A DNA stretch of 64,000 nucleotides from a virus (IMGVR_UViG_3300012573_000004), one strand, 5' to 3'; counted from the stretch's first letter, positions 759-37,314 are shown. Notes: generated from the letters alone by a model not told the origin. Translations and numbers: made by a program.

Positions 759-2174
759 TCAAAGATCACTACACACAGAATCATTATTGATTCTGCTATC
801 ATGTACATCATTGACTAATTTGGCACCATTTTTTGAGTGAGACACCCCAGGACATACACCGTTGTCCTGGGGGCTTTTTCTTATATGGCGTGGAAGAACG
901 CTAAGCCCTATTCCTCTTCTAGCAATAAGATAGCTTGCTTTTTGGTGTATGGTTTTTCCATACTTTCTATCATTCCAGAATTGGGTATTTTTAGAAGTAT
1001 TATAAGGACTTACCTTTATGCATTTACCTCCACATATATCCATCTTTCTCTTTAGAAGAGTAGAAAATGTGTGATAAGGGATTTTATTAATAGTTCTATT
1101 TAGAGCTCTTGCACTACTTATAGAACTTCTTTTCAAAAAAGAAAGGCCTTTGAGGTTTTCAATATAAACTGTGCTGCAATGATTCTTTTTCAGCCAGAGA
1201 TAAATGGAATGAACAAGTGTTTCAATATCTTTGGAGTGCTTATGATGAAACTCCCTTTGTGCAATAGGGTTTCCATGTTTGTCTACTATAGTGCAAGAAA
1301 CAAAACCAGAGTTTTGGTCAATACCACATGCTCTTCCAGGTATATGTGATATTCCATGCTTCTTGTACAATCTTTCTTTTTCTACCCTAGTAGTTATATG
1401 TAGTCTCCATACCCTTTTATTGCTATCCCAGCAAAACTGGTATGCAGTTGCTAAACGCTCTTTGATACTATGATAAACATTCTTTTTACCGTGTTTAATG
1501 ACTACTTTGCCAAGCACATATTCTCTTCCTTGTAGTCTTAATGCTTTTTGCATTCCTGAACTAATCTTGATGGTTAGTTCTCCAGTGTCAGGGTTTAACT
1601 TGATGGTGTCATTTCCACATGTTTTTCCTGATTCACCCATAAACTCAAGGAATAATCTCTTGTTATTCCAATCTTCTTTTAATGAATCATCCCAGTAGTT
1701 TTGTGTGATTTTTCTTTGAAGCTTTGAACCACCAAAGCAGCATGATGGTGCTTTGGAAGATGATAGCCTTATTTTCTTGTTAATAACGGCAATAGAATCA
1801 ATGGCATTCTTTTTCTTTAATCCATGCAAAGTGGGAAGTTTCTTGTGAAGACGTGATATTTCTTTGTTCCAACTTCTGATATTTTCTTGAGAAGTTCTTA
1901 ACGCTAGTTGATACTGCTCAGAATTGGAATAAACAACATAGTCTGCTTCTCTTTTGCTAATCCCATATTTTTCCATTAACCGTGATCTACGTTCTAGCTT
2001 AGAAGGAGTATCCTTGTCTTTTCTATGACAAGATACTATGTATGAATAATCATCATTTCTCACGGTACTTAGGAAAAGTCCCACAGTGTGAAGAATATTC
2101 TTTCCCTCTTTGGTGAGATCAAGCTTTGTAGAATAGGTGAATACAAGATAGTCTTTACTTTTCATGAGATTCAC
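759..2174 (-). CDS. tnpB: TnpB-family RuvC-like nuclease (IS607-type accessory). C-terminal zinc finger and RuvC-III look degenerate.
   Basis: RuvC-I-like CGIDQNSGFVSCTIVDKHGNPI and RuvC-II-like VYIENLKGL. Only two Cys (CGGKC) in the zinc-finger region. Overlaps the upstream recombinase ORF. Confidence 0.65.
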   Translation of the reverse strand: MNLMKSKDYLVFTYSTKLDLTKEGKNILHTVGLFLSTVRNDDYSYIVSCHRKDKDTPSKLERRSRLMEKYGISKREADYVVYSNSEQYQLALRTSQENIRSWNKEISRLHKKLPTLHGLKKKNAIDSIAVINKKIRLSSSKAPSCCFGGSKLQRKITQNYWDDSLKEDWNNKRLFLEFMGESGKTCGNDTIKLNPDTGELTIKISSGMQKALRLQGREYVLGKVVIKHGKKNVYHSIKERLATAYQFCWDSNKRVWRLHITTRVEKERLYKKHGISHIPGRACGIDQNSGFVSCTIVDKHGNPIAQREFHHKHSKDIETLVHSIYLWLKKNHCSTVYIENLKGLSFLKRSSISSARALNRTINKIPYHTFSTLLKRKMDICGGKCIKVSPYNTSKNTQFWNDRKYGKTIHQKASYLIARRGIGLSVLPRHIRKSPQDNGVCPGVSHSKNGAKLVNDVHDSRINNDSVCSDL

Positions 2175-2784
2175 CCTTAGATTCTTCTTGAAGGAGATTT
2201 TTTACTCTTTCAGCTCCTCTTTTACCATATAATCTCCCACATGCTGATACCATGAACTCAGTTATTTCTGTTGCTAAGTCATCTTCAACATCATTATCAT
2301 TGGCAACAATGATGTCCCTTCCTTGTGCATTAAGAGTCTTTTTAATGAGATTAAAATTGCTTCTAGCTAGCCTTTCTCTATGTTCAACAATGATGGTGGA
2401 TATAGAAGGATCAGCAAGTATAGAAGATAGTTTCTTTCTATTTTCATTAAATCCAGAACCTACCTCTTCTACACATTTATCAATTGATAATCCATTGTTG
2501 TTAGCATATTCATAGATAGCTAGCTTCTGAAGTGGCAATGACTCTTTTTGCTTAGATGTGCTCACTCTGCAGTAGGCAACTGTGAAATCATCATTATTAT
2601 TTTCTTCATAGGAAGAAATACCAGTGAAGGATTCTGGAACCTCAACTAAAATGATTCTTTCACTAGGGCGAAAAGTGGGAAAAGGTATCTTTCCTTGGTG
2701 ATACCAATTCAAAGCAGTTTGACGTGTTACTGTCATAAGATCTGCATATTCAGAAAGTCTGATTTTCCTTGTTTTCTCTTTCAT
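2155..2784 (-). CDS. tnpA: IS607-family serine recombinase (MerR-like HTH plus resolvase catalytic domain)
   Basis: Catalytic YCRVSTSKQ serine motif. N-terminal HTH (LMTVTRQTALNWYHQGKIP). Start chosen at MKEKTRK, preceded by the SD aaagggg. Confidence 0.75.
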   Translation of the reverse strand: MKEKTRKIRLSEYADLMTVTRQTALNWYHQGKIPFPTFRPSERIILVEVPESFTGISSYEENNNDDFTVAYCRVSTSKQKESLPLQKLAIYEYANNNGLSIDKCVEEVGSGFNENRKKLSSILADPSISTIIVEHRERLARSNFNLIKKTLNAQGRDIIVANDNDVEDDLATEITEFMVSACGRLYGKRGAERVKNLLQEESKGESHEK

Positions 2785-2919
2785 TAGTATCACCCCTTTC
2801 ATACTATAGTGCATTTGTATATATGGTATTATCATTATACCATACCTTTTTCATATTTGTCAAAATAAGTATTGATACAATGTTTTATATTGAAAATACC
2901 ATATTTTAATAGCAGTTAG

Positions 2920-2992
2920 TGCCCCCGGCAGGATTTGAACCCGCGACACATGGGGTAGAAACCCACTGCTCTATCCACTGAGCTACGGAGGC
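2920..2992 (-). tRNA. tRNA-Arg (anticodon TCT)
   Basis: Reverse complement GCCTCCGTAGCTCAGTGGATAGAGCAGTGGGTTTCTACCCCATGTGTCGCGGGTTCAAATCCTGCCGGGGGCA. Anticodon loop TTTCTAC. Confidence 0.8.
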
Positions 2993-3488
2993 ATGTGTTC
3001 AGCCAATGAAAGCAACCTTTCATGACAACTACCATTTAACCACAGTATCATCTTGATGTCAAGAACAACTCTTCCAAGGGTGTTCAAAGTCCTTTGTCAA
3101 GCTGTTCCACGTGAAAGGAAAGACTCAAGATGTATTTGTAGGAAAATTATCCCTACAAATGACACTGATTATCTCAATACTAGATAATCAGTGCGGGAAG
3201 TGCAAGCATCACCCTATCAAAAAGCACACCATCATATTGTGATGCTTATCACTTGTGCGGTTATGAAGTTATCATCAGATGATGAGGAAACAAGGAGGAG
3301 GAAAACAGCACTATTTTCTACAAATAGCGCACCTCATCACCAGTTTCTGGTGCTCTCATCGGCTGACATGAACTACTATAACACTATAAAAAATCTCATG
3401 TCAAATTCTTTACCGTTTTTACTTAAGTACTGCTGTTTTGATACTCTTCAAAGAAGAAAACCAACCTACTAGATAAAGGAAACGATCT

Positions 3489-4622
3489 ATGGCAACTCTT
3501 ACTTTTGATGACTTGACATCTAAAGCACTCAAATGGGTACTTTCTGGTGCAGACAACTCTGACTATGGACACTACATTATAATCTCCATTGACAAGGATG
3601 GATTTACTAAACTTTCCACCAACACTCCCTTTGGACGATCTTTGGAGATGCAGGCTGAAAACACTGAAGGTGAATATTCTGATGTAGCTTTTGCAGCTTC
3701 TACTCTTTCTGGTTTGGCTAAAAGTGTAGAAGAAGGAGATCAGCTCACTTTAAACATTGACAATAAGAAAGATGTTATCTACATCTCACTTGCTTCTACC
3801 ACTATCACAGTAGATAACCTCTATGATGTGTGTCCTGTGGTTGCTAGTCTGCGTGGAAAAACCACTCTTACCACTGTAGATGCTAGCTCTGTAGCTCAAG
3901 CTTTGACTACTGCTACAAAGATGCTTCCCAAAAATGGTGATGTAGCTATTGACTGTGATAGTGATCGTTTGACTGTTTCTGCTATTTCTTCTGAACTTGT
4001 TTCTAGAGAAGAGTTCCCTTCTACTCTTCCTGAAGGTGAAGAGTCTCACATTCTTGTATCAGGAAAGAAGCTTTCTCCTCTTAATGCAGTAGTGCGCACT
4101 GGAATTGTAGAGGATATGAAGATTAAGGAAGAACGTGGAGTGGTAAGTTTTGTCTTCCCTATTCATGATGATTCTATTGGTATTGATGCGTTGTCTATGA
4201 ATGTTTCTACTGCAGTAGAAAACTACAATGGTGAAGGAGGAGAGTTCCTTGATGATGAGGAAGATGAGATCGCTACCTTGTCTATTTCTGAAGTCAAAGA
4301 AGCTCTAGCCCCTTTGACTGCTGTTGTCTCTGATGCCAATGTCACCATTGATACTACAGGTGCTCATGGTGTATCTCTTACTATCACCTCCAAAGGTACA
4401 GCTGCAAAAACCATTGTTCTAGATGCTGAAGTAGCTTCTGGTACTACCTATACAGTTTCTTTGCCAATGTTTATGGCTGCTTTGAAGAATATTTCTACTG
4501 CACAGGTTGTTATTTCTTCCATTTCTGTTGATGATGATCCACAGTGGTACATCTTGACTCCAGATCATGGTGATGATGACAATCCTGGTGAAGATCTCAT
4601 TGTTGCCATTCCTCTTAGATAA
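3489..4622 (+). CDS. DnaN-like DNA polymerase sliding clamp (beta clamp) homolog; orphan
   Basis: 377 aa, the size of a beta clamp. Segment LTLNIDNKKDVIYISLASTTITVDNLYDVCP resembles the domain-I 'SGrsrFsLstLpaedfP' region. RLTVSAISSELVSREEF resembles the domain-II 'lrlvATDghRLa' region. SD aaaggaaacgatctATG. Confidence 0.5.
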   Translation: MATLTFDDLTSKALKWVLSGADNSDYGHYIIISIDKDGFTKLSTNTPFGRSLEMQAENTEGEYSDVAFAASTLSGLAKSVEEGDQLTLNIDNKKDVIYISLASTTITVDNLYDVCPVVASLRGKTTLTTVDASSVAQALTTATKMLPKNGDVAIDCDSDRLTVSAISSELVSREEFPSTLPEGEESHILVSGKKLSPLNAVVRTGIVEDMKIKEERGVVSFVFPIHDDSIGIDALSMNVSTAVENYNGEGGEFLDDEEDEIATLSISEVKEALAPLTAVVSDANVTIDTTGAHGVSLTITSKGTAAKTIVLDAEVASGTTYTVSLPMFMAALKNISTAQVVISSISVDDDPQWYILTPDHGDDDNPGEDLIVAIPLR

Positions 4623-4648
4623 GATGGTGGCTCTATAAGAAAAACAAA

Positions 4649-4692
4649 ATGCACCTTTTTGTTACAGATTATACAAAGAGGTGCATTTTTTA
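4649..4692 (+). terminator. Rho-independent terminator downstream of the clamp gene
   Basis: atgcacct...aggtgcat stem followed by TTTTT. Confidence 0.6.
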
Positions 4693-4735
4693 TGTCCCCT
4701 TTATACCTGTGCAGTGTTCAATGACACTTTGTGTC

Positions 4736-4749
4736 CCTTTTTGAAGATA
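4736..4749 (+). promoter_or_regulatory. TTGTGTCCCTTTTT motif copy. Representative of at least 14 plus-strand copies (a degenerate ATGTCCCCTTTAT copy also lies at 4691).
   Basis: Exact motif read in the sequence. See the findings for the full list. Confidence 0.5.
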
Positions 4750-5042
4750 CCTGATGAAAGCTATTTCCAACAATGATTTTTTCGACCCCCTCCTCTAATA
4801 AGATCAAGGGGAGAATACAGCTTTTTTACAGCATTATTACTTCCTCATTTTTCAAGTTGCCTATTTATATTCAAGAATATAAATGCAATGTGCATGCTTT
4901 GACCTGCTGTTTTATAACCACTACCCCCATTTTCTACCCCCGTAGAAGTCAAAAAACTTGCGCTGTTCATCTTGCTGTGTCATACTAATAACCACAAGGA
5001 AAAACACACCATATCAACACTTCTTAAAGGAGAAAAAATATC

Positions 5043-7610
5043 ATGCGTTATAACACTGGCGTATCTACTATCAGCAATGCACAGTCTAATCTTATGACTG
5101 TAGATCCTGACAAGGCTGCAAAGGTAGCAGCAATGCTTGTCAACAACTACACCTCCTATGTCACCCCTGTGCGAGAGGTCATCATCAATGGTTTGGAAGC
5201 TGTTGAGGGTCAAGAAGATGGTCATGTCACAGTAGAGTTTGATGCTCAACTGAAAAAGGCCACTTCTGTTTTCTCCAACTATGACATCAATGGAGAAAAT
5301 GACTACACCATTCATATCACTGATAATGGCTGTGGCATGAGCCATGACTTTGCTAAGAACAAGTTTGTTCACCTGACTGCTTCCAGCAAGGATGACTCTG
5401 ATGATTCTATTGGTGGCTTTGGTATTGGTGCTAAGGCTGTAGCTTCCATTTCCCACCACACTGTATTCCGCACTGTTCAAGATGGTGTTGCTACTGTCAT
5501 TGTCTTTGGCATGTCTGACAAGGGTGCCACCACCTCTGTTAGTGATCCTATGGAAGTAGATGAGCCTAATGGCACTAAGGTATCTATCCATGTGGATCAG
5601 GATACTTTCTATAGCATCATCTCTGATATTGAAGAACAGTTTCTTGACTGGATTGATCCTGAGACTCCACTAACTGTTTCTTCTCCTGAAAGGGATTTTC
5701 AGGTAGGCAAGAAGTCTCAGGATACATTCCATTCTTATACTCATAGCAATGGTGTTGTAGTTCATATGGTAAAGAACAATGATAAGGGTATGTTTAGTTT
5801 TAATCCTGCTGACTCTATGCTTCGCTGTGTAGGAATGCCTTATCCTGCTACCAACTCTATGAAGAATTCCTATGAGATTGGTGCTTCTTTTGTCAGGGCT
5901 TTGAACGGTGTTATCCCAGGAGCGCAAGTAAGAAACAATAGTTTCTACCTCATCATTGATGTTCCACCACGTGATATCACCATTGACTCTAGCCGTGAGC
6001 GTGTAGCTGATACTGTGCATCTTCGCACTGTCATTGATGAAGCTATTGATGCTGCTGTAGAGGATTATGCTTATAGCATTGCACATAACCTTAAAAACTC
6101 TAAGGATAGCCAGGAGTTTTTTGATAAGATCGTTCAAGGATTCCCCTGTGTTGGACTCACCCTACGTAGTGGAGCATTGGGCAATGCTAACTCTATTGTG
6201 GAAGATTACACTACCTATGTAGAAAAAGATAATGATCTTGAGGGCAAGGGTATCTTTATTATCAATGATGAAGATGATAAGTGCTACAAGAGCGGAAATC
6301 TATATGAAATGGATAATGATTCCATTAGGTACATTCTTGATGCGTGGCGTGCAGAGTCTATTTCTCGTGTTTTTGCAAGCTCTGACAGTATTGATGATGC
6401 TTTGGGTGTTGATACACACAAGTGCTCTTTTGTGGTAGTTGTTGATACCAAGAATGGTGGCTCTACTACACAGATCAACGGTGGCGGTCTCTATGATAAG
6501 ATTCTTCCAGATTCTTTCTTGAGTCTTTTTGATGACAAGGAAGACATTGATCTTACTATGGAACTTGTTAAGTGGCATCTTGACATTAATGCTTATACTG
6601 CACCTAAGAGCTACCATGCTATCCGCAAGTCTATGATGACTCGTGGACGTGGCAAGGGCAAGAATGGTTCCCATTCTAAGCGTGAGATCTTCTCCTATAT
6701 TGACAACAATGGAAATCGCAAGATTGTCACTGCTGGTGATGCCAATGATATTCTTACCCAGTGGAAGAATGATAACATTTCTACCCTTGTTCTACTTCAA
6801 GACAACAATGACAATACTGGTCTTGACTACTATCAAGAAACACTAAAAAACATTGACAAGGTTGTTCAAAAGGTCTATGGCACAGATCACAAGGTAGTAT
6901 TTGTTTCTGCTAAGCGCTGTGATACTGTGGCAAAGAATGTGCGCATCTTGAAAGAAAATGCTGACAAGGCAGTAATGGAAGTCAATGAAGATATCCTTGA
7001 TGGTAAAGATGTCACAAACTCTATGTCTCATATCACCAAGGATATGTCTCAAGGAATGGGTTTCTTGTTCTTTGAAAGCTCTCTAGACAACTTCTTTGGT
7101 GGCGAGTATGTCAATAGTGGTATTGGATACAAGTGGCTAGATGCTGAATATGGCAATGGCACTATCCAGGATATTCTTGTTGATTACTTGAATCTAGATC
7201 CTGAAAAGTATCACAAGGCTAAGGAAAATATCATTGAAACTATCAATGTTGTTTCTGATGACGAACCTCAATCTCCTGATGACACCTCTGTAGATTACTA
7301 CCGTGCTATTACTGGAAGTGCTATTGTTTCTGCATTCCACAAATTCTACTACAGCCTTGGAAACAAGGATAAGACCCTTGACACTGTAGGAAAGCTCTTT
7401 GCTGATGGTGCAGATTACGATGAATACACCCGCCGAGTGCAAATCCTTTTCAACGTTGTAAACTATACTTGCAAAAACCATGTTGGATACAGTGGTATTA
7501 GCAACAAGGAATCTGCTAAGTTTATGGGCAATACCATTGCTACTGCTCAAGAGCTTGCAGACAATCCTGACTCTTTGGCAACTCAAATGATGACAAATGG
7601 CTGGGTGTAA
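5043..7610 (+). CDS. GHKL-superfamily (Bergerat-fold) ATPase; MORC/Hsp90/MutL-like, function unknown
   Basis: N-box REVIINGLEAV. G1 box TDNGCGM. G2 box GGFGIGAKA. SD aaggagaaaaaatatcATG. Confidence 0.55.
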   Translation: MRYNTGVSTISNAQSNLMTVDPDKAAKVAAMLVNNYTSYVTPVREVIINGLEAVEGQEDGHVTVEFDAQLKKATSVFSNYDINGENDYTIHITDNGCGMSHDFAKNKFVHLTASSKDDSDDSIGGFGIGAKAVASISHHTVFRTVQDGVATVIVFGMSDKGATTSVSDPMEVDEPNGTKVSIHVDQDTFYSIISDIEEQFLDWIDPETPLTVSSPERDFQVGKKSQDTFHSYTHSNGVVVHMVKNNDKGMFSFNPADSMLRCVGMPYPATNSMKNSYEIGASFVRALNGVIPGAQVRNNSFYLIIDVPPRDITIDSSRERVADTVHLRTVIDEAIDAAVEDYAYSIAHNLKNSKDSQEFFDKIVQGFPCVGLTLRSGALGNANSIVEDYTTYVEKDNDLEGKGIFIINDEDDKCYKSGNLYEMDNDSIRYILDAWRAESISRVFASSDSIDDALGVDTHKCSFVVVVDTKNGGSTTQINGGGLYDKILPDSFLSLFDDKEDIDLTMELVKWHLDINAYTAPKSYHAIRKSMMTRGRGKGKNGSHSKREIFSYIDNNGNRKIVTAGDANDILTQWKNDNISTLVLLQDNNDNTGLDYYQETLKNIDKVVQKVYGTDHKVVFVSAKRCDTVAKNVRILKENADKAVMEVNEDILDGKDVTNSMSHITKDMSQGMGFLFFESSLDNFFGGEYVNSGIGYKWLDAEYGNGTIQDILVDYLNLDPEKYHKAKENIIETINVVSDDEPQSPDDTSVDYYRAITGSAIVSAFHKFYYSLGNKDKTLDTVGKLFADGADYDEYTRRVQILFNVVNYTCKNHVGYSGISNKESAKFMGNTIATAQELADNPDSLATQMMTNGWV

Positions 7611-7626
7611 CATTTAGTAAATAGAA

Positions 7627-7660
7627 AACCTCTCCCCTTAGTGGGAGTGGTTTTCATTTT
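7627..7660 (+). terminator. Rho-independent terminator after the GHKL ATPase gene
   Basis: Imperfect stem acctctccc/gggagtggt followed by a T-run. Confidence 0.5.
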
Positions 7661-7860
7661 TTATTTTCAATGATTTTGTGTCCCTTTGGAAGTATTCTAT
7701 CCTGCATACTAGACAACATGATTGCTGTATGATACAATTGAACACGTAAGAAAAACACACCAGAAAATATCAAAAAATGTAGTATATCTACTTGTCAGAA
7801 CCATGACTGACTGATATACTAATGAAATATAACCCAATCATTTATGAAAGGAACAAAGAA

Positions 7861-8688
7861 ATGGCACAGCCACTATCTTTTACTATCATTTCTCAAGATG
7901 ACACTTCTATCCTCTCTTTTGTAGATATGACTACAGGACAGTCTGGAAATCTCCCACAGTGGTCTAGTCTTGATAAAAAGTCACAAAACACCATCATGGA
8001 TATCATTAAAAATCCAGATAGTGTAGACGGTGATCCTATCAAGGCTATCTATGATGCAGCAAGCAACTATAACTCCAATGCTATCCAAGAGATCCGCAGC
8101 AAGCTAGGTATCACAGTAGATATTGATAATATCTACATTGGTTCTATTGTTTTGCCTAAGACTTTCCAAAAGCTACTGGGAAATGTTGATACACTAGAAG
8201 AAGCACAAAGCATTGTTGCTTTTGCTAAGGATCTAGAAAACAATCCTGGTGAGCACTGCAAGGAAGCACTTATTGAGTGGCTAGTAGCTAATCCTAGCTT
8301 GTCTTTTGCTCCAGATGGTCGCATCATTGGCTACCGTGCAGTTGATGACAAGTTCCTTTCCTATCACAGTGGTTATGGCATTGTCAATGGAGAAGAGTTT
8401 TCTAACTCTAAGCTAGATAGCACTCCTGGAAATGTTTTGCAGTTCCCTCGTTTTATGGTAGATCAGAATACTGATAAGCATTGTTCTATTGGCCTCCATG
8501 TGGGTACATGGAAGTATGCTTCTACATTTGGACATCAAAAGCACATTTCTGTTGCTTTCAAGGCTTCTGATGTAGTCTCACCACCATCTGATGCTCATCA
8601 GGAGAAGATCCGAGTTTCTGAGTTTGCTGTTCTAGAAGAAATCACTGAACCCTACCATGACACCATTGTTGTAGGTAAAACCTACTAA
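7861..8688 (+). CDS. Hypothetical protein
   Basis: Long ORF. Start moved to MAQPLSF because of the SD aaaggaacaaagaaATG. Confidence 0.5.
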   Translation: MAQPLSFTIISQDDTSILSFVDMTTGQSGNLPQWSSLDKKSQNTIMDIIKNPDSVDGDPIKAIYDAASNYNSNAIQEIRSKLGITVDIDNIYIGSIVLPKTFQKLLGNVDTLEEAQSIVAFAKDLENNPGEHCKEALIEWLVANPSLSFAPDGRIIGYRAVDDKFLSYHSGYGIVNGEEFSNSKLDSTPGNVLQFPRFMVDQNTDKHCSIGLHVGTWKYASTFGHQKHISVAFKASDVVSPPSDAHQEKIRVSEFAVLEEITEPYHDTIVVGKTY

Positions 8689-8732
8689 TAAATCAAGCAC
8701 CATCACTTTTTTAAGAAAGGACACTTTATACT

Positions 8733-9608
8733 ATGTCTAAGATCATTACCATTTTTTCTAATCCTGGAACCTATAGCTCTACGCTTCCATCTTCTTCAGT
8801 ATCTGACAAGGTAGAAGATAACAAAACTCTTACTGCTTTGGGTCATACTGTTGATGAAAAGAATTTTGATAAGTCACGTCATGTAGCATCTCTTTTCAAT
8901 GCTATTTCCCGTGGACGCAATGTTCATGCTACAGCGCAGCGCATTGGTCTTGTTTCTGATCATCCTGGTGAGGGTGGCAATGATATTGAATATCTATCAG
9001 AAGCCATGAAGAATATCTATGGCATTCATGGTGATAACGCCATTCTGGGTAGCATTGAGGTAACAGATGCACAAATGGAGTATCTAGAGTCTAATCCCAA
9101 TGCTATGGAGGTATTTATTGATAATGCAACCATTCAACCTGATAACCTTTCCTGGAATAAGGAAGATGTAGAGCACCGTGAGTCTTTGTGTGAAGAAGTT
9201 CACTCTTTTGCTAATGATGTCAATGATCTCATTGATGTAGCACGTGAAGCAGAAGATGAAGATGATGACTGGACTGATGACTGGGATGATGAAGATGATT
9301 GGAATGACTGGGATGAAGAAGATGATTGGGATGACTGGGATGACTGGGATGAAGAAGATGATTGGGATGAAGATGATGATTGGGGTGAAGATGACTACAG
9401 TGTAGAAGAAGATAATGAGGATTCTAATACAGGAGTCAACTCACCCTCACAGATCAAGGATGATGAATATATCAGCATTGAAGATCTTAGCCCACATGCA
9501 CAGCTTGTAGTTCTAACCCCAGAAGAACTAGAAAAGCTGAAAAAGCACCCACGTTTTGCTAATGCAGAACAGCTAGAGCTTTCCTTTGATGATGTAGATG
9601 ATGAATAA
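8733..9608 (+). CDS. Highly acidic protein with a tandem (D/E)DW repeat tract (DDWTDDWDDEDDWNDWDEEDDWDDWDDWDEEDDWDEDDDWGEDD)
   Basis: ORF with the SD aagaaaggacactttatactATG. Low-complexity D/E/W repeat. Terminator follows. Confidence 0.6.
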   Translation: MSKIITIFSNPGTYSSTLPSSSVSDKVEDNKTLTALGHTVDEKNFDKSRHVASLFNAISRGRNVHATAQRIGLVSDHPGEGGNDIEYLSEAMKNIYGIHGDNAILGSIEVTDAQMEYLESNPNAMEVFIDNATIQPDNLSWNKEDVEHRESLCEEVHSFANDVNDLIDVAREAEDEDDDWTDDWDDEDDWNDWDEEDDWDDWDDWDEEDDWDEDDDWGEDDYSVEEDNEDSNTGVNSPSQIKDDEYISIEDLSPHAQLVVLTPEELEKLKKHPRFANAEQLELSFDDVDDE

Positions 9609-9628
9609 TCTTTCATCTTAAAACTTTA

Positions 9629-9671
9629 CCCCTTGTGCATTATGTGAGGTGATGCACAAGGGGTGTTTTTT
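9629..9671 (+). terminator. Rho-independent terminator (12-bp perfect stem ccccttgtgcat/atgcacaagggg plus T6)
   Basis: Read in the sequence. Confidence 0.8.
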
Positions 9672-9742
9672 GATCATTTATTTTTGTGTCCCTTTTTCCT
9701 ATCAAGATGACACTCCAAGATGCAAAAAAAAATAAATGACAA

Positions 9743-9925
9743 CTAATAGCGCCACTCGTTTTTTGCTAAACTTTTCAAACGCTCAACAAAAGGAGTATAA
9801 GGTCTAGGCTCACGAGATTCCAACTCGTCTAATATGTCACTATCAACCACAGTAACGCTATCTGCTATGGCTTTGTTTCTAGAACATTCTTGGCATTGTT
9901 TTATATGTTCATCATGCTCGTCCAT
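9743..9925 (-). CDS. Small hypothetical protein (MDEHDEHIKQCQEC...)
   Basis: SD aaaggtgag upstream of the ATG. A small minus-strand ORF between plus-strand genes. Confidence 0.3.
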   Translation of the reverse strand: MDEHDEHIKQCQECSRNKAIADSVTVVDSDILDELESREPRPYTPFVERLKSLAKNEWRY

Positions 9926-10112
9926 CAATGATCACTCACCTTTCAAAATATCTTTACTAATCTTATTGATTCTACAGGAATAATCCCCTGTGCTTTTGTC
10001 TATATTGATAGTAGATTTTAGTATAACACCAAAAGGATGTGTAGTCATTTTGTTCTTGGTAAGATAATCCACATATCTTATAATCATCACAAGAAAAGAG
10101 GATAGGTTATCT

Positions 10113-11906
10113 ATGGCAAGAAGAAAGACACGCAAATCACCCGCTAGGCGCTCACGTAAGCGCTCAACATCTTCTAAGAAGTCAACTACCCTTAATAGCT
10201 CACAGAAGTCCTTAAAACAGCGTCAGAAGGCTCCTTGGGATAGGTTGAAATTAGCAGGATACAGTACCCCTATTATCTATCAATTCCCGTGGGAGGATAG
10301 AGCATTATCTAAAGTGGCACAAGCTGAATACTTCCCTGGTATTGGGTATGTATCTTTGAAAGAAAATCCTCTCTTTAAAGACTATAGGATAAAAAACTAC
10401 TCTTGGGAGAAGTTCATAGAAGATAAAACTAGCAATACAACATCTACTCCTTTCCCAGAAGGAGAAGATCCTTATGTTTTAAGAGAAGATCAAAAAGAAG
10501 ATGTTGCAACTATCATTAAAGCTTATAATGCTGGTGCTCCTGAATTCTTGATTGCCAATGCTACTGGTACAGGAAAAACAGTTACTACCCTTGCAGCATT
10601 AGATGAGCTTAATCCTCACAGTGTTCTTATAGTATGTCCTACAGCAGTTATTCCTGTATGGAGAAGACATATTGAAGATATGGGTGATAAGGGAAGGAAG
10701 TATGTTATTATCAACTATGAATCCTTGAAGAAACTTGTGTCCCCTCCTGATGAAGCAGTTAAAGCTAAAAAGGCAGCAACTCAAAATAAACACATTTCTC
10801 TATCAGGAAAACCTTATACACATTTTGATGCAGTTGTCATTGATGAAGCACACAAGACTAAAAACCCTACTGCACAACAATCACGCATATGCTCTATGAT
10901 CTCTGCGCATGCACGCTTTACTCTAAGGCTCACAGCTACCCCTGGAAAGAATCCTTCACAGCTTCATTACTTGTATAGACTTTTATCTTTTAATACTGGG
11001 GATAACATTGAAGTAAAAGATGATAAAGATTTCTCCCGCTATATTTCCTGGTGTAAAAAGCATCATGTTGATGGCATTGTCTCTGCTCCTTTTGGAAATG
11101 GTATTACCTTTGAAGGCGGTAGTGACTCTGTAAGAGCTATGGAGAAGATACTCTATGGAAAAACTACCCACGGTGTTACAACAGCCATAAAGAAGAAACC
11201 ACACAATTGGGATAAAGTAATAAGACAACCCTACCCTATTGACATTTCTGCACAAGAAAAACAGGACTATCAACTTCTAGTAGAAGATGTAAAAAACATT
11301 ATGCTCAATGCTGGAAAATCTAGAAGAATGGATATGTCTAAAGGTATTGCTGCAATGATGAAGATGCGTCAAAAAGCTGGTCTTTTAAAAGCATCACATA
11401 TTGCCAACTACACACAGTATTGTGTTCAAGATCTAGGAGAACAAGTAGTTATATCTACTGTATTTCACAACACTGCAGAAGTCATTGAAGAAAAACTTCA
11501 TTCCTTAAAGATTGACTGTGTAACTATCACAGGAAAAGACTCTGCTGAAGACAAAGAAGATAAAAGACTAGCCTTTCAACAAGGTAGAGTCCCTGTAGTC
11601 ATCACCTCTATTACTACAGGTATTTCCTTACACAGCAATGAAGAATCAGTAGGAGGAAACTCTACTCCTCGCAGGCTCATTGTAGGAGATATCCACTTTT
11701 CTCCTATTGAGCATACACAGCTAGAGGGAAGAATCAACAGGAATGGAGAAAGCGGGATTGTAGTCATTCCTATGCTTGCTGATACAGTAGATGAGAAAGT
11801 TGTATCTACTTTACTTCATGGTGTAGAAACTCAATCTATTCTTCAATCACATGGCGATGAAGATGATATTGCTTTTCTTGCAGATGCACTAGGAGTAAAA
11901 CTTTAA
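10113..11906 (+). CDS. SNF2/DEAH-box superfamily-2 helicase with a basic N-terminal tail
   Basis: Walker A GTGKTVTT. DEAH box VVIDEAHKTKN. Motif VI QLEGRINRNGESG. SD aaaagaggataggttatctATG. Confidence 0.75.
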   Translation: MARRKTRKSPARRSRKRSTSSKKSTTLNSSQKSLKQRQKAPWDRLKLAGYSTPIIYQFPWEDRALSKVAQAEYFPGIGYVSLKENPLFKDYRIKNYSWEKFIEDKTSNTTSTPFPEGEDPYVLREDQKEDVATIIKAYNAGAPEFLIANATGTGKTVTTLAALDELNPHSVLIVCPTAVIPVWRRHIEDMGDKGRKYVIINYESLKKLVSPPDEAVKAKKAATQNKHISLSGKPYTHFDAVVIDEAHKTKNPTAQQSRICSMISAHARFTLRLTATPGKNPSQLHYLYRLLSFNTGDNIEVKDDKDFSRYISWCKKHHVDGIVSAPFGNGITFEGGSDSVRAMEKILYGKTTHGVTTAIKKKPHNWDKVIRQPYPIDISAQEKQDYQLLVEDVKNIMLNAGKSRRMDMSKGIAAMMKMRQKAGLLKASHIANYTQYCVQDLGEQVVISTVFHNTAEVIEEKLHSLKIDCVTITGKDSAEDKEDKRLAFQQGRVPVVITSITTGISLHSNEESVGGNSTPRRLIVGDIHFSPIEHTQLEGRINRNGESGIVVIPMLADTVDEKVVSTLLHGVETQSILQSHGDEDDIAFLADALGVKL

Positions 11907-12004
11907 TCTTTCCTGTGGATTTCACATATATAACTTCGTTATGATATAGTTTTCAACTATGAACATTTGCACATATCTTTTGTCACGAAGAGAAGAGGAA
12001 AAAC

Positions 12005-12388
12005 ATGGCAAAAACTTACCAAACTCATATCATGTGGTCAGGTCACGGAGATGACATCTACAACCAACCTGTCAGTCTTCTAGCTTCTGGAGAAGACAAT
12101 GCACGAGAGATGTTTAGCAACATTGTCTCTGAAGGTCTTGCTATTAAAAATGATGGTCTTTTCCTAGCAGCTGTTTCACCAGAAATGACTGAAGAGGAAA
12201 TCAATACCTATTCTGATGATAAGGAAGCACTCTGTGCAATCATCAAAAGTGAAGATGAAAAGTTCTCTCTTGGATCACTGATTAAAGAATATGCTACCAG
12301 CAATGATGACTGGGCAGAAGGTTCTTTGACTGTTATCTATGATAATGATGAAACTGATGCTGATGTTACTATGACTAACCGTGGATAG
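12005..12388 (+). CDS. Small acidic hypothetical protein
   Basis: ORF with the SD agaggaaaaacATG, followed by a strong terminator. Confidence 0.55.
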   Translation: MAKTYQTHIMWSGHGDDIYNQPVSLLASGEDNAREMFSNIVSEGLAIKNDGLFLAAVSPEMTEEEINTYSDDKEALCAIIKSEDEKFSLGSLIKEYATSNDDWAEGSLTVIYDNDETDADVTMTNRG

Positions 12389-12404: not shown

Positions 12405-12442
12405 CCCCCTAGCAAAGAATAATCTTGCTAGGGGGATTTTTT
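12405..12442. terminator. Bidirectional rho-independent terminator (ccccctagcaa...ttgctaggggg plus T6) between convergent genes
   Basis: Read in the sequence. Confidence 0.85.
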
Positions 12443-12464: not shown

Positions 12465-13769
12465 CTACTCATTGTCCTTCTCTTCATTGTTTTTCCCTTG
12501 GGAAGTATTATCTTCTGACTCTTTGTTTTCTTGTCTATTATCCTCCAGTGGAATAGCTCCAGCTTTCTCCATAGCTTTGTGATAAGACTTAGCAGCTTTT
12601 TCTTTCTGCTTTCTTCTCTCACGAAGTTGCTGAGTAGACTGTGATTCATCTGTTTCCTGATAACGGAATTGAGGAACAACCCAACCACGGTTTTGAGGGC
12701 TAGAAGAACCTCCTACACCCTTCTTTTTGTTGGTATTAGCAAAACGAGCCTTAGTCAAGGAACGTCCTACCTGTGCAATAGTTCCAGCAAAGTTAACCCT
12801 TTGATCATCAGGGAGATTTTTAGCGTTATTAGCAATCATTCCACGGCGAGTGGTAGCAGCATGAAGAGAATCAAATTCACCCAACTTGACAGTGACATCT
12901 TTACCTCTGGTATTGGTAAGCATATGTCCTAGTTCTTGAGTGTTTTTATCCACTGGAGAAGCATCCTCAAAAGAGGTTGCTACAGTAGTGCGCATTGACA
13001 CAACATACTTGCCATCTTTGTTTTCTGTAATATGCATGTCATGGCGTCCCTCTACTACAGATCCATCTGGCATAGAAAGACGAGTCATTTTAGTCAAACT
13101 GTCAGCAGCTTTACTACCAATCTCTTCTCCATCAATCTTTTTTGGAGGTCTAGTTGACTCCTCTTTTCTCCATGCAGAATCGGCACCAGTTTCTACCCAT
13201 GTAGATGCACGCTGTAGCTGTTCATCACTAAGATCATCAAGTTCTACTTTTTGAGGTTTTCCTGTAGTGTAGTCAATCCCTGATTTGTTGCGTTGTGCTC
13301 TAGGAGAAAACTCTGCACCACGGTTGATTGCTTCTTGTCTAAGTATTGGTCTTTCACTAATAAACTCATGATAGTCCTTATAGGAATCATCCCTTCTAGC
13401 GATACCTTCTTTCAAGAGCTTATCATAACGCTCAATCTTGCCTTGCTTTTCCTCCCACAGTCTTAGAGCACCTTGCTTAGAAGGAGAAGGTTTGCGTTTA
13501 GGCAAAGAGTCTTGCACCTCTTTAATCTGCTCTGCAAGGTACTCTTGTCCAGCTGGAGTAGCATAAAACACACGGTTTGCCTGCTCCATGCGAAGCTCAG
13601 CATTGTGTAGGCTTTTAGCTACTTTTTCTGGCATAGGGTTGTCATTGCCGCCATCTTCAAAAGGTTGTGCTTGTGCTTGTGCCTTTTGAAGATTTTTCCT
13701 TGCTGCTGCATGACGTTTTCTACCACTATTAGAACACCTTGGGCCTGGTCTTGCTCTACACATGTTCAT
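12465..13769 (-). CDS. Hypothetical protein (basic N- and C-termini, Q/K/E-rich)
   Basis: 434-aa ORF with no recognisable motifs. Confidence 0.5.
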   Translation of the reverse strand: MNMCRARPGPRCSNSGRKRHAAARKNLQKAQAQAQPFEDGGNDNPMPEKVAKSLHNAELRMEQANRVFYATPAGQEYLAEQIKEVQDSLPKRKPSPSKQGALRLWEEKQGKIERYDKLLKEGIARRDDSYKDYHEFISERPILRQEAINRGAEFSPRAQRNKSGIDYTTGKPQKVELDDLSDEQLQRASTWVETGADSAWRKEESTRPPKKIDGEEIGSKAADSLTKMTRLSMPDGSVVEGRHDMHITENKDGKYVVSMRTTVATSFEDASPVDKNTQELGHMLTNTRGKDVTVKLGEFDSLHAATTRRGMIANNAKNLPDDQRVNFAGTIAQVGRSLTKARFANTNKKKGVGGSSSPQNRGWVVPQFRYQETDESQSTQQLRERRKQKEKAAKSYHKAMEKAGAIPLEDNRQENKESEDNTSQGKNNEEKDNE

Positions 13770-26641: not shown

Positions 26642-28036
26642 CTACCAACTCACTAAAGCTGAGTTGGTTTCCTGCTTCTTAGAGGATACAGTCCCCTGCA
26701 TTGCTGCAGGTTTCTGTAGGTCTACAACCCTCTCACTATGCTCATAGAAAACATAGTCCAATTGGTCCAAATAAGAGTTTTGTCCAATCAGCACAGGCGT
26801 TAATTCCCTATGTTCCATAGGTATATTATGTTCTGATAAACCAAAATCTATCATGTTTTTAGCTGCATGAATATCACGATCTTCTGTAGCACCACAGTAT
26901 TTACATACATATTCTCTTTCTTTCAAAGAGTGTTTAGTGTTTTTATCACATGAAGAACACCATTGTGTAGTAGGAGACCACTTATCCACCATAAAAGCTC
27001 TTGGATGAGCTTTCAAAAGAGATTTAACTCTACCTAGAACACTGTGATGGAGTTTTCTTCCAAAGCGCATCTTCCATGCACTCAAACTTTCATCTTGAAA
27101 GAAGACATACTCATTTTTCATCAAAAGAGAAACTATTTGTTTAGCAAGATTATCTTTCTTGTTATTAAGTTTGTCATATTCCCTGTTTAGTTTCTCCTTT
27201 GTAATGAAGTAGTTATGAGAAAGTGGAATATAAGACAAACCTTCTTGATTCTTTCTCTTTTTTGCTTGTCTATATTGTCTATCTAGTTTCCTTTGTAGTC
27301 TTTTTACCCTTTGTGGCACTTCAATAGTAGTACTTATCTTCTCACCAGTTGATAGGGTTATGTGAGTTGCAATTCCCATATCAATCCCAATAGCAGTATT
27401 AGGAATGAAATCATCTACATCTACTTGTGAGGTATAAGCTGTTATTTTAATGAAGAACCCTGATGCTTTTTTAATGAGTTTAGCATTAGCTAACTCAGCA
27501 TCTTGAGGTATTTGATGCAGTCCATAAACTTTAAAACTTCCAGGTATCTTTTGAATACTTGCTTTCTTTTCTAGAAAGTTTATTTTATAGGTAGTTTTGT
27601 ATTGCTTGAGATCAATACTTTGAACCTTGCGTGCAAATTTCAAACTTCCTACTTTATGTCCCTTTTCTTTGAGTGCTTTCAAAGAAGACAAGTTTCTAGA
27701 GATGGAAGAAACAATAGACTGTTTCAACTGAGAACCTAGATAACAAATCTTCCTATCTTCCATTTTTCCTTCCCTGTTCATCACAGGTACTGTTTTTCCA
27801 GGAATATAAGAAGTTGGTTTATCAGTGTTAAGAGCAGCATTGTATATCCATTTTGCTTCAAGAAACACCTTATCTAGCGCTTCTTTTTGCTGGAGGTTGA
27901 GTTTATCCATATCAACTTTTAGCTCATAAACTTTACATGTTTGTTGAGATCTACGCTTGCGAGTTTCTTGTCTTGTTCTCGCTATTTGTGCATTTTTCTC
28001 ATTTGCATAAACTTTCTTATTTACTATAGCTGACAT
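26642..28036 (-). CDS. tnpB: TnpB (IS605 OrfB) RuvC-like nuclease
   Basis: RuvC-I IGIDMGIATHITLSTGEK. Zinc finger CSSCDKNTKH...CKYCG. RuvC-III DRDIHAAKNMI. SD agaggtgaataataccATG. Confidence 0.8.
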   Translation of the reverse strand: MSAIVNKKVYANEKNAQIARTRQETRKRRSQQTCKVYELKVDMDKLNLQQKEALDKVFLEAKWIYNAALNTDKPTSYIPGKTVPVMNREGKMEDRKICYLGSQLKQSIVSSISRNLSSLKALKEKGHKVGSLKFARKVQSIDLKQYKTTYKINFLEKKASIQKIPGSFKVYGLHQIPQDAELANAKLIKKASGFFIKITAYTSQVDVDDFIPNTAIGIDMGIATHITLSTGEKISTTIEVPQRVKRLQRKLDRQYRQAKKRKNQEGLSYIPLSHNYFITKEKLNREYDKLNNKKDNLAKQIVSLLMKNEYVFFQDESLSAWKMRFGRKLHHSVLGRVKSLLKAHPRAFMVDKWSPTTQWCSSCDKNTKHSLKEREYVCKYCGATEDRDIHAAKNMIDFGLSEHNIPMEHRELTPVLIGQNSYLDQLDYVFYEHSERVVDLQKPAAMQGTVSSKKQETNSALVSW

Positions 28037-28114
28037 GGTATTATTCACCTCTTTTCTGATATTTTGCTATGCTCTTACTTAAAGAGTATAGCACATAAGA
28101 AAGTGATAAGTAGA

Positions 28115-35922: not shown

Positions 35923-36033
35923 ATAGTTTTTCCTATTCTAGGATACATTTTTATCCTTGTTTTTGCTGGGATGAGAAAAACCCCTGAATCCTTATAACAG
36001 GAAACAGAGGTTTGATTCTATAAAACTACAACA

Positions 36034-37314
36034 TTAAAAGAGTTGTTTTACCTTTGCAAAAAATGATTTACCTTGTACCTTTCCACCAGTCTTTACTGTT
36101 GGTCCTACAGCTTCCTCTTCTGCAGAATCATTGACACTATTTCTGTCTTCTGTGCTGTCTACTGTAGAACCACCTTCAGTGGTATTTCCTGCAGTAGCAC
36201 TTCCTGTAGTGGTACTTCCTGCAGCAGTGTTTCCTGCGGCAGTGTTCCCTGTGGTAGTAACCCCTGGAACAGTTCCATTGCCAACAACAACAGCTTCATC
36301 AGTATCTTCAGGAGGGTTAATCACTGTTGCATCAGTTACCTTGGAGTCATCTACTTGTGTCCCTTTATTTGTGGAAGACTTATGAGAAGTTGATGGTTTT
36401 GCTGTTTGTGATGTAGAAGGTTGGGAAGACTCATCCTCACTAGGAGTGTCTCCATTGGAGGTGTCTTCCTTAGTGGGAACTTCTGCATCAACAGTTCCAC
36501 CATCTTCTTGTGGTTGTGCATTACCAGAATCTTCCCCTGATGCAGTTACAAAACTATCATTTTGTTCAATGGTTTTTTCAATCCATTCTTTGTATTGAGC
36601 TACAGGCATATATAGTCCATGAGATATTTCTCCCTTGTCAGGAATAGTTGCCATAGACAAAACGCCATATACTGTGTCATCTATAATAAATGGAGATCCA
36701 GAGTCACCCTTTGCAGAATGGCCACCATCAAAGATTACCTCATTAGTGTCCATGTCTTTAAATGGTCCACCATGAACAGCTTCTGGAAGCATTGTTCCAT
36801 TGAGGGTATTGAGAGCTTTGAGTCGTGGTTCATCTATAGGCTTTCCCCATCCATAAGCTTGTCCCTGCTTTTCTTCTTGTATAACACTATCCCAAAGCTT
36901 CAACGGGGTGATATTTCTTACTGGTTTATCTAAATGGAATAGAGCCATATCATCTTGATCAGAGTGCATTTTAACATCATCTATTTTGTACTCTTGTCCA
37001 TCATCAGTGGTCCCAAAAGTAGCAACCCCAGAATACTTATCTAGTCCTTCTTTAACACAGTGTGCAGCAGAAAGAATCCATTGTGGAGCAATCAAAGTTC
37101 CTGTACAAGATGTAACATGCACAATCCCACTACCATTGGCTTGTACTGCATCTATTTCAGCTTTATCACTTAGCTGGATGTGTGTTATAGCATTAGTAGT
37201 ATCATTAGCTTCTGCATTAGTATCACTGACTAGAGCTTGTGCAGGAATGGCCATAGTTGTCAATGCTAATGCTGCTGTTGCAGAAGCTGTAGCCATTTTT
37301 GTTTTATAACCCAT
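36034..37314 (-). CDS. Secreted trypsin-like serine protease with a Thr/Ala/Gly-rich linker and a C-terminal TGG tag (GPTVKTGGKVQGKSFFAKVKQLF)
   Basis: Signal peptide. His motif SAAHC. Ser motif GDSGSPFI. Tag. Confidence 0.8.
   Translation of the reverse strand: MGYKTKMATASATAALALTTMAIPAQALVSDTNAEANDTTNAITHIQLSDKAEIDAVQANGSGIVHVTSCTGTLIAPQWILSAAHCVKEGLDKYSGVATFGTTDDGQEYKIDDVKMHSDQDDMALFHLDKPVRNITPLKLWDSVIQEEKQGQAYGWGKPIDEPRLKALNTLNGTMLPEAVHGGPFKDMDTNEVIFDGGHSAKGDSGSPFIIDDTVYGVLSMATIPDKGEISHGLYMPVAQYKEWIEKTIEQNDSFVTASGEDSGNAQPQEDGGTVDAEVPTKEDTSNGDTPSEDESSQPSTSQTAKPSTSHKSSTNKGTQVDDSKVTDATVINPPEDTDEAVVVGNGTVPGVTTTGNTAAGNTAAGSTTTGSATAGNTTEGGSTVDSTEDRNSVNDSAEEEAVGPTVKTGGKVQGKSFFAKVKQLF

Follow-up and report, generated by a model that had tools for sequence, protein, structure and literature searches.

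We describe here a block of six co-oriented genes in a 64,000-nucleotide stretch of DNA, IMGVR_UViG_3300012573_000004 (the whole stretch is hereafter called the window). The genes occupy positions 3489-12388 of the plus strand and fall into three recognizable parts: a predicted sliding clamp of the DnaN type, a cassette made of homologs of the phage proteins rIIA and rIIB and an acidic third protein, and an SNF2-type helicase with a small partner. The block is probably a backbone segment of a replicon of about 380 kb, combining a private clamp, an rII counter-defense cassette and an SNF2 translocase, and is neither a defense island nor a single operon. As for the replicon itself, a giant element resembling a plasmid, in a Gram-positive host, is the most likely identity. 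Each part is of a known kind (DnaN fold, rII pair, SNF2 helicase). New are the clamp family, which sequence libraries had missed, the third protein that is conserved with the rII pair, and the location of the cassette on a giant, possibly non-viral replicon; an rII pair on a plasmid has a precedent in Mycobacterium. What an earlier note on this DNA had presented as a possible new defense system resolves into these three parts, with two family assignments corrected beyond a reading of the sequence.

All six open reading frames (ORFs) proposed in that note are present at the coordinates it gave (377, 855, 288/275, 291, 597 and 127 amino acids (aa); Table 1). Their orthologs were read from loci of related elements, designated here by L-numbers, which were compared with the window. 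In elements with a guanine-cytosine (GC) content of 48-49%, against 37.6% in the window, the gene order is kept and amino-acid identity is 82% for the clamp, 45-47% for the second protein, 69% for rIIB, 48-49% for the acidic protein, 74% for the SNF2 protein and 66% for the 127-aa protein. Because order and protein identity are preserved in relatives of different GC content, we consider the six ORFs to be genuine genes.

A diverged DnaN-type clamp family

The first gene of the block encodes a 377-aa protein for which an AlphaFold 2 (AF2) monomer model, built from an alignment of 15 family members, has a mean predicted local distance difference test score (pLDDT) of 86 and a predicted template modeling score of 0.82. 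The model contains three repeated beta-alpha-beta domains in one chain. When it was compared with the PDB using Foldseek, all of the top 50 matches were bacterial DnaN chains (E-value 1e-17, template modeling (TM) score 0.69-0.74, identity 11-15%), and comparison with BFVD returned phage DnaN-like clamps (E 3e-17). The three-domain clamp fold suspected in the earlier note is therefore what the model displays. Identity to DnaN is 10-15%, with TM scores of about 0.72-0.75 to DnaN of many bacteria and phages, and the sequence has no match in Pfam, NCBIfam, PHROGs, PADLOC, the PDB (phmmer) or phages (tblastn).

A HMMER profile search of 1.84 billion representative proteins (E<=1e-3) delineated a clamp family of 25 clusters, nearly all with proteins of 375-425 aa and all from metagenomic contigs. 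The best PDB match of the wider family profile is a DnaN, aligned in register (E 0.0097). Among 20 family members, one distant member matches PF02768 (DNA_pol3_beta_3) at 7e-7, two match PF00712 at 0.067 or weaker, and one matches PF02767 at 0.044. The sequence thus lends faint but in-register support to kinship with DnaN by homology rather than convergence. Four lysines on the predicted inner helices of the clamp (K144, K193, K194 and K270) are invariant. On the strength of the predicted fold, we take the 377-aa protein to represent a previously unmodeled, highly diverged family of DnaN-type clamps.

All lineages sampled have the clamp, which gives it the look of a core gene of this element family. 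As the earlier note had remarked, no dnaA, recF or gyrB gene is adjacent to it. In three lineages it is linked to a gene resembling parC/gyrA, which lies about 1 kb from it in L006 and L008, with the clamp downstream, and about 5 kb from it in L016. P0284 and P0158, which both list 19,976 bp as longest, may lie on one contig.

An rIIA/rIIB pair

The second gene encodes an 855-aa protein with an N-terminal GHKL ATPase domain (Pfam HATPase_c, 1.5e-6, above cut-off). Beyond this domain, residues 92-668 align with positions 81-611 of the 725 positions of PHROG 612, 'RIIA' (9e-24). The AF2 model (pLDDT 78) argues in the same direction: the top 30 or so Foldseek matches in BFVD are mostly phage RIIA proteins (of KVP40, RB43, 44RR2.8t and others) or unnamed viral proteins, with long alignments and E-values of 1e-20 to 1e-13. 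Residues of the N-box, G1 and G2 motifs are invariant in 11 homologs (E45, N49, D94, G96, G98, G124, G127, G129 and K131). The large Bergerat-fold ATPase recognized in the earlier note therefore stands, but its placement with the MORC/Hsp90/MutL type does not, since both PHROG 612 and the structure identify rIIA. Profile matches to Hsp90 and TopoVI-B in the PDB span only residues 28-200 or so, and the NCBIfam HSP90 model scores 18.6 bits against a cut-off of 455. A search of Pfam and NCBIfam found the GHKL domain only and none of TOPRIM, DNA_gyraseB or GyrB_C. We rejected MORC, MutL, Hsp90 and GyrB as identities for the protein, whose sequence lacks the middle and C-terminal domains specific to these families and whose long structural matches are to RIIA. 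In tblastn searches of phages and plasmids, neither the full-length protein nor its N-terminal part found a match. We conclude that the 855-aa GHKL protein is an rIIA homolog.

The next gene, which starts about 250 nt 3' of rIIA, is rIIB. Its product matches PHROG 609, 'RIIB', at 1.9e-30, and an identical gene carries a precomputed assignment to PF26926 (Phage_T4_rIIB). By tblastn it matched 2346 phage records and 8 plasmid records; 89% of its length aligns with annotated rIIB of T4-like coliphages, at 25% identity (E 7e-15), and matches to annotated rIIB of actinophages reach E 1e-26. The ortholog in L021 is 45% identical, against the 69% noted above for L006 and L008. The two genes are also adjacent in L001, L002, L006, L007, L008 and L021. 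Of the two proteins that the earlier note could not assign, this one is accordingly placed, and the 127-aa protein at the end of the block indeed matches no family in Pfam, PHROGs or NCBIfam.

A partner of another kind may be considered for the GHKL protein. In L006 and L008, a 740-aa ParC/GyrA-like protein (Pfam DNA_topoisoIV, 3.6e-107) is encoded about 3 kb 5' of the GHKL gene, and no GyrB was seen in its vicinity; the best PDB and NCBIfam matches of the GHKL N-domain include topoisomerase VI-B, and phage topoisomerase II figures weakly among the structural matches, at ranks 49-50. The two proteins might then form an unusual split type IIA topoisomerase, with the rIIA-like protein as its ATPase subunit. 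We regard this as very improbable. The protein lacks TOPRIM, DNA_gyraseB and GyrB_C, whereas the canonical GyrB of related elements shows all four Pfam domains and, in L010 and L017, is encoded immediately upstream of the GyrA-like gene. Furthermore, the window lineage has no GyrA-like gene next to the block at all, the conserved partner of the GHKL protein is rIIB, and its long structural matches are to RIIA. Nor does the protein resolve into a canonical topoisomerase or MutL, the outcome that the earlier note had named as contrary to its own reading.

With the identities given above, rIIA is the fastest-diverging gene of the block between lineages (45-47% identity, against 69% for rIIB and 82% for the clamp), which is consistent with a gene engaged in conflict. 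Phage T4 RIIB is an anti-defense protein required on RexAB hosts, and bacterial gasdermin systems sense RIIB (Wein et al., PMC10312443). rIIA has been described as an N-terminal GHKL domain joined to a variable C-terminal domain, at the center of a poorly understood counter-defense system (PMC7824862).

A conserved acidic third member

The gene after rIIB encodes a 291-aa protein with an isoelectric point (pI) of 4.05 and 85 Asp/Glu residues. A conserved N-domain of about 170 aa precedes an acidic-aromatic tract, which varies in length, and the protein closes with a short C-terminal segment whose last residues are QLELSFDDVDDE. In the window, the tract spans 50 residues, of which 36 are Asp/Glu and 9 are Trp; it comprises eight (D/E)DW units, the tandem repeats already seen in the earlier note, encoded by a 9-nt periodic repeat at 9249-9410. 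The same tract is present in the L006 and L008 orthologs. In L021, the gene after rIIB shares the architecture and the pI of 4.05, with a D/E-Y tract in which tyrosine takes the place of tryptophan. The protein matches no family in Pfam, PHROGs or NCBIfam, and an acidic-tract gene after rIIB is absent from actinophage A3Wally and from the Mycobacterium plasmid, where we looked for it. Wherever a lineage has the rII cassette, this protein comes after rIIB, and it is a family-specific third member of that cassette.

Residues 280-285 of the acidic protein (9569-9586) read QLELSF, the only strict match to QLxLxF in 13.9 kaa (thousand amino acids) of window ORFs. We take QLxLxF to be the consensus of beta-clamp-binding peptides, which the hexapeptide resembles. 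The peptide is absent from the L006 and L008 orthologs, and the L021 analog ends in ...ITEFFL. As a candidate clamp-binding peptide, suggested by sequence resemblance, QLELSF is only a lead.

An SNF2 helicase and its small neighbor

The fifth gene encodes a helicase of superfamily 2 (SF2), with Pfam matches to ResIII (7e-17, 62 bits) and SNF2-rel_dom (4e-15, 56 bits) that both exceed their cut-offs. Helicase_C falls short of its cut-off (17.4 bits against 23.5), and the alignment with PHROG 62 ('DNA helicase', 5e-49) runs over residues 93-582. A DarB-like antirestriction protein is matched by PHROG 62 as well, in its helicase part. The protein has GTGKT and DEAH motifs and 17 Lys/Arg residues among its first 45, in keeping with the SNF2/DEAH helicase with a basic N-terminal tail that the earlier note had described. 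Its nearest annotated relatives are stand-alone helicases (about 33% identity) on 300-700-kb plasmids of Actinomycetota and Bosea; phage matches are few and weaker. We found no rII or clamp genes beside the closest plasmid homologs, in Frondihabitans and Euzebya. The gene for the 127-aa protein lies directly 3' of the SNF2 gene in all four loci concerned (L001, L006, L007 and L008).

It is around this helicase that a defense system could be imagined, in which a MORC-like GHKL ATPase and an SF2/SNF2 helicase would act with a clamp-like sensor against phages. Mobile elements carry defense islands, and restriction-type genes flank the window, with GmrSD_N-HNH and EcoRI-type methylase genes on the right and a 1043-aa DEAH helicase and a methylase-like gene on the left. 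In PADLOC, the SNF2 protein shows partial, domain-level matches to DpdE, PbeA, ZorD and DrmD, with a negligible match to TmtA. However, the NCBIfam defense models score 16-48 bits against cut-offs of 500-1500 (DrmD 37.5 against 610, ZorD 16 against 1500, DpdE 17 against 500), the other proteins of the block have no match among PADLOC models, and the block contains no partner gene of DISARM, Zorya, Dpd or BREX. The GHKL protein and its neighbor are rIIA and rIIB, which are phage counter-defense genes; the genes are divided by terminators; and the block is a conserved backbone of an element family, not a variable island. A new anti-phage system is thus improbable, and the defense-island interpretation of the earlier note is not retained; nor is its view that the composition matches no described system, which fails for the core of the block, rIIA/rIIB being a long-described phage pair. 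The best fit is with its alternative suggestion of a clamp that belongs to the mobile element.

Gene order in related elements and limits of the block

Comparison of loci separates the block into units. L006/L007 and L008 display the order ParC/GyrA-like gene, tRNA-Arg(TCT), clamp, rIIA, rIIB, acidic protein, SNF2, 127-aa protein and a convergent 415-aa gene. The window lineage has the same block, and to the left of tRNA-Arg has IS607 and other tRNAs, not the GyrA-like gene; ORF 2-238 at the left end of the window was tested as a possible tail of that gene and is not. In L021, with a clamp about 25% identical, we find the clamp, a Dam-type methylase, an inverted rIIA, rIIB and the acidic protein, and no SNF2 gene. 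L003/L005 (clamp 45% identical), L016 (41%) and L020 (31%) have a clamp without the rII cassette. The rII trio is therefore a cassette often, though not always, found beside the clamp, and the SNF2 and 127-aa genes form a third unit, seen in one sub-lineage. Homologs of the trio formed by clamp, GHKL protein and helicase do recur together elsewhere, as the earlier note had wondered, in L006, L008 and, without SNF2, in L021, but not in L003/L005 or L016.

In L006 and L008 the clamp is likewise preceded by the tRNA-Arg(TCT) gene, with no IS607 element there. The tRNA is a conserved left neighbor of the clamp and not a boundary of an integration or of an island, and comparison with L006 and L008 shows the IS607 element beside the block to be an insertion. 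A second, non-identical IS607 is found further left in L001; the IS607 copies have no 24-mers in common.

The earlier note held the genes to be bounded by terminators. This is correct at the right end; at the left end a hairpin scan found no terminator, and a strong one lies inside the block. Weak hairpin terminators follow the clamp (4723-4735) and the GHKL gene (7630-7647). With terminators inside it, the block must comprise several transcription units rather than a single operon. ORFs 3191-3472 (93 aa) and 4773-4988 (71 aa) are probably not genes: we looked for protein conservation in the relatives and found none. Convergent with the block, at 12465-13769 on the minus strand, is a gene for a 434-aa Lys/Glu-rich protein (pI 9.3) that occupies the same position in L001, L006 and L008 and matches no known family.

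Table 1. Genes, transcription signals and repeated motif of the block and its surroundings
Feature	Position	Strand	Basis or remark
IS607-type pair, serine recombinase + TnpB	759-2835		
tRNA-Arg(TCT)	2919..2992	-	ARAGORN + Rfam; also upstream of clamp in L006, L008
Predicted clamp, DnaN family, 377 aa, pI 4.2	3489..4622	+	AF2 + Foldseek
rIIA-like, N-terminal GHKL ATPase + long fast-evolving C-terminal region, 855 aa	5043..7610	+	PHROG 612, Foldseek
rIIB-like, 275 aa from M14 (288 aa if start 7822)	7861..8688	+	PHROG 609, PF26926, tblastn
Acidic partner protein, 291 aa	8733..9608	+	Composition, orthologs
Intrinsic terminator, strong, 17-bp stem + T-run	9627..9665	+	Closes rIIB-acidic transcription unit
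SNF2/ResIII-type SF2 helicase, 597 aa, pI 9.2	10113..11906	+	Pfam, PHROG 62
Conserved acidic protein, 127 aa	12005..12388	+	Orthologs
Hairpin terminator, strong, between convergent 127-aa (+) and 434-aa (-) genes	12405..12435		Right block end
Copies of TTGTGTCCC	4729, 7676, 9684, 10735, 12441, 15407, 17141, 18793, 31166, 36355, 37725, 47818, 52052, 53738, 57513, 60676	+	

A giant replicon

Exact copies of the block proteins occur in many samples, and the longest contigs carrying them cluster at 374-383 kb; among the contigs are ERZ1031795 NODE_1 (382,215 bp), ERZ27289771 k141_5510 (378,967 bp) and a JGI contig of 379,056 bp. We take the block to belong to the conserved backbone of an uncultured, roughly 380-kb replicon, of which the window and some 20 kb of flanks represent about 22%. 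Megablast of the block against phages and plasmids gave no match, and pattern scans of IMG/VR and of GTDB species genomes for the clamp family found nothing; the broader clamp-family alignment is too diverged for pattern scanning. Most window ORFs belong to no family. Those that do include three trypsin-like proteases encoded in tandem, the surface proteins SpaA and RibLong, SPFH, AT3-SGNH and NT5C; the window also has six tRNAs, and its TnpB/IS607/IS605 elements number at least four.

Could the replicon be the genome of a jumbo phage, with the block as its early DNA-metabolism and host-takeover region and the clamp as the clamp of the phage replisome? Several features fit. The phage records with rIIB homologs vastly outnumber the plasmid records, as seen above. 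The six scattered tRNAs, NT5C, an HNH-type endonuclease with DUF4379 repeats and, just outside the window, a PNKP-like gene are accessory genes of the kind expected, and relatives carry PhoH and a ribonucleotide reductase (RNR) with an intein. In L006 and L008, rIIA is about 3 kb downstream of a topoisomerase-A-like gene; on the T4 map, rIIA adjoins the topoisomerase II genes 39 and 60. However, PHROG scanning of the larger ORFs, about 60 in the window and 49 in related loci (some 70 kb), or about 110 in all, detected no capsid, portal, terminase or tail family in the portion of the replicon seen, the sole hint being a tape-measure match at 6e-6. The clamp family is absent from IMG/VR and the block from GenBank phages in the scans just described, and the many cell-surface and membrane genes (three trypsin-like proteases, SpaA, RibLong, a mechanosensitive (MS) channel, SPFH, AT3-SGNH) are unusual for phages. 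The GyrA-like gene also points elsewhere: its closest named cellular relatives are ParC proteins of Bacillota (about 33% identity), and its nearest relatives, at 40-50% identity, are found on large contigs where they accompany Rep3, ParA, RepA_N, type IV secretion system coupling protein (T4CP), MobL relaxase and canonical GyrB genes. Taken as an explanation of the block, a jumbo phage is rather unlikely. As to the type of replicon, we consider a plasmid-like element slightly more likely than not, a phage appreciably less likely, and an element of some other type unlikely.

Giant plasmid-like elements have recently been described in oral Streptococcus. These Inocles, of 245-395 kb, are rich in insertion sequences, possess their own gyrase and Pol III genes, and are missing from isolate genomes (Kiguchi et al. 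2025, PMC12340149). We return to them below.

Proposed role of the block

From the folds, family assignments, gene order and conservation set out above, we infer biochemical activities and a counter-defense role along the following lines. The clamp would close into a ring as a head-to-tail dimer and serve as the replicon's own processivity ring, tethering a Pol III-type replicase of the element or of the host, together with repair factors, to the element DNA. rIIA, rIIB and the acidic protein probably protect the element, as it enters or replicates, against RexAB-like systems of abortive infection or exclusion, encoded by the host and by resident prophages, that would otherwise kill the cells taking up or replicating it; this protective role is proposed because of the homology with T4 rIIA and rIIB. 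The fast-evolving C-terminal region of an ATP-driven rIIA, with the acidic tail, would be the interface of conflict. Finally, the SNF2 translocase and its small acidic partner probably serve the element in DNA remodeling, recombination or anti-restriction.

Several observations weigh against this interpretation. The lineages L003/L005, L016 and L020 carry the clamp without rIIA, rIIB or SNF2, and SNF2 is absent beside the cassette of L021. Since the clamp occurs without the cassette in three lineages, the units can exist apart, and they may lie side by side for reasons of history and not of function. In the sequence read, we saw no polymerase, clamp loader or replication initiator on the clamp contig. 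The rII function assumed here is carried over by analogy from a phage of Gram-negative bacteria, and rIIB has also been interpreted as a transcription factor (PMC7824862). The replicon shows phage-like traits, namely scattered tRNAs, NT5C, the PNKP-like gene, PhoH, RNR with an intein and HNH/homing endonucleases. In addition, its GC content (37.6% here, 42-50% in relatives) differs from that published for Inocles, which is 32% (alpha to gamma) or 24% (delta).

A bolder hypothesis, which we hold to be quite doubtful, would make rIIA, rIIB and the acidic protein a three-part machine coupled to the private clamp on a giant non-viral replicon, guarding the establishment of a foreign replicon at the replisome or on DNA. 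A C-terminal peptide of the QLxLxF type would anchor the acidic protein to the clamp, or else this protein would mimic DNA, and the clamp family would have diverged past the point of recognition by sequence so as to escape clamp-targeting factors of the host or of rivals. If this were true, rII proteins would be general guardians and not phage-only 'lysis inhibitors'.

Independently of the mechanism, a beta-clamp family is added that standard profile libraries all miss. The conserved acidic partner offers a new handle on rII function, whose mechanism has stayed unresolved for many decades. Furthermore, the replicon is barely described, and searches of GTDB, IMG/VR, PLSDB and GenBank phage sets did not find it; its backbone genes may be used as markers by which such elements can be found and classified.

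A strand-polar motif

The 9-mer TTGTGTCCC, which extends to TTGTGTCCC(TTT), is present in 16 exact copies in the window, against 0.3 expected (Table 1). All copies lie on the plus strand regardless of gene orientation, and most are intergenic; in the block they follow the clamp, rIIA, acidic and 127-aa genes. The motif is found in matching intergenic gaps of the block in L006-L008 despite the different GC content, and also in L001, L014 and L003/L005. In nearly every related locus its copies share a strand, and the more distant loci lack it. Its G-rich complement is on the strand marked as leading by GC skew. TTGTGTCCC may be a polar motif of the Chi, KOPS or SRS kind or a signal specific to the element.

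Other features of the window and its flanks

A scan of the window for clusters of DnaA boxes, as a sign of an origin, found none near the block. Three DnaA-box-like 9-mers, one of them perfect, are grouped within 34 nt at 47419-47452, in an AT-rich gap free of ORFs (about 46.7-48.1 kb). Sites with at most one mismatch number 49 in the whole window against 23 expected, and GC skew does not flip at 47419-47452.

Besides the IS607 pair, three ORFs resemble TnpB/Cas12f (26642-28048, 49880-51346 and 54827-56623). At 28552-30114 on the minus strand, adjoining a TnpB gene, is a gene for a 520-aa protein that contains the DUF4379 treble-clef zinc finger in four repeats and matches PHROG HNH and homing-endonuclease families at 2e-78. 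The three tandem trypsin-like serine protease genes (500, 426 and 466 aa) are at 34420-38800 on the minus strand, and a pair or trio of such genes is also found near the clamp in L003 and L005. The six scattered tRNA genes are all on the minus strand; that at 412-484 is a tRNA-Ile with anticodon TAT, a species believed to be rare in bacteria.

Directly left of the window, L023 (8-4615) encodes a 1043-aa SF2 helicase (GKS, DEAH) beside a 341-aa protein in which the motif CEPATGTGNF, recognized by eye, resembles an S-adenosylmethionine-binding site; judged from these motifs, the two are a possible restriction-modification or defense pair. About 7-10 kb past the right end, L014 (1-2874) carries GmrSD_N and HNH (type IV restriction-like), an EcoRI-type methylase and a PNKP-like kinase/phosphatase, all on the 378,967-bp contig. 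In L021, a distant member of the element family, the large subunit of a class I ribonucleotide reductase is encoded at 818-3535, 6.5 kb upstream of the clamp; it gives a weak signal for an intein.

Comparison with known systems

The clamp resembles DnaN clamps (PF00712/PF02767/PF02768) in its length of about 375 aa, its predicted three-domain fold, its overall acidity and its conserved inner-helix lysines. It differs from them in matching no DnaN model of Pfam, NCBIfam or PHROGs and in being encoded without dnaA, recF or gyrB as a neighbor.

The SNF2 protein has the SNF2/ResIII motor domain in common with DrmD (DISARM), ZorD (Zorya), DpdE and PbeA. Unlike these defense helicases, which measure about 1000 aa or more, it is only 597 aa long and has no nuclease or effector domain; its scores are far under the family cut-offs, and the partner genes of these systems are absent.

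The replicon and the Inocles belong to the same size class. Both have many insertion sequences, about one ORF per kb and mostly unannotatable ORFs, their own tRNAs, their own gyrase and DNA-repair genes, and cell-wall and LPXTG-type surface genes, and both are absent from reference databases and from the genomes of isolates. Neither the InoC marker (PF13814) nor VirB4 or VirD4 is found among the Pfam-scanned window ORFs and the annotations of the flanks (window plus about 20 kb), and the paper describing the Inocles (PMC12340149) mentions neither clamp nor rII genes. We did not accept identity with the published Inocles, given the mismatch in GC content. A 5.7-kb contig of 31% GC, L017 (ERZ26880763), carries a canonical GyrB and GyrA-like pair, the latter 50% identical to the GyrA-like protein of L006. 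Its GC content matches that of Inocles alpha to gamma, which hints that the GyrA-like gene links our element family to the Inocles.

Like rIIA and rIIB of T4, the two genes of the window form an adjacent pair in the order A then B, the GHKL ATP-site residues are intact, the C-terminal region of rIIA is variable, and rIIB is found by tblastn against T4-like phages. Unlike the T4 pair, they reside on a replicon of about 380 kb in which no virion genes were seen among the ORFs scanned. The rIIA protein of the window is longer (855 aa, against the 725 positions of the PHROG model) and is detected by profile and structure, not by tblastn. Moreover, an acidic-aromatic third protein always follows rIIB here, and a DnaN-like clamp is usually near.

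A closer precedent for an rII pair outside phages is provided by the 154-kb plasmid NZ_CP015269 of Mycobacterium intracellulare, where rIIA-like and rIIB-like genes, annotated 'ATP-binding protein' and 'hypothetical', are found at 142728-152873 (L012/L013). Matches to rIIB domains also occur on seven further plasmids, four of which are Variovorax megaplasmids. The Mycobacterium plasmid, from a high-GC actinobacterial host, differs from the window in having no clamp and no acidic-tract protein, in the amidoligase and GATase genes that lie between, and in its helicase, which is part of a 1580-aa DarB-like methylase/helicase (PHROG 10089, 6e-258). Both nevertheless carry an rIIA-like and an rIIB-like gene on a non-phage replicon (PHROG 612 at 1e-47 and PHROG 609 at 3e-37 for the plasmid), and the plasmid pair lies two genes 3' of a protein that, like the fifth protein of our block, contains an SNF2-type helicase module (PHROG 62, 1.5e-33).

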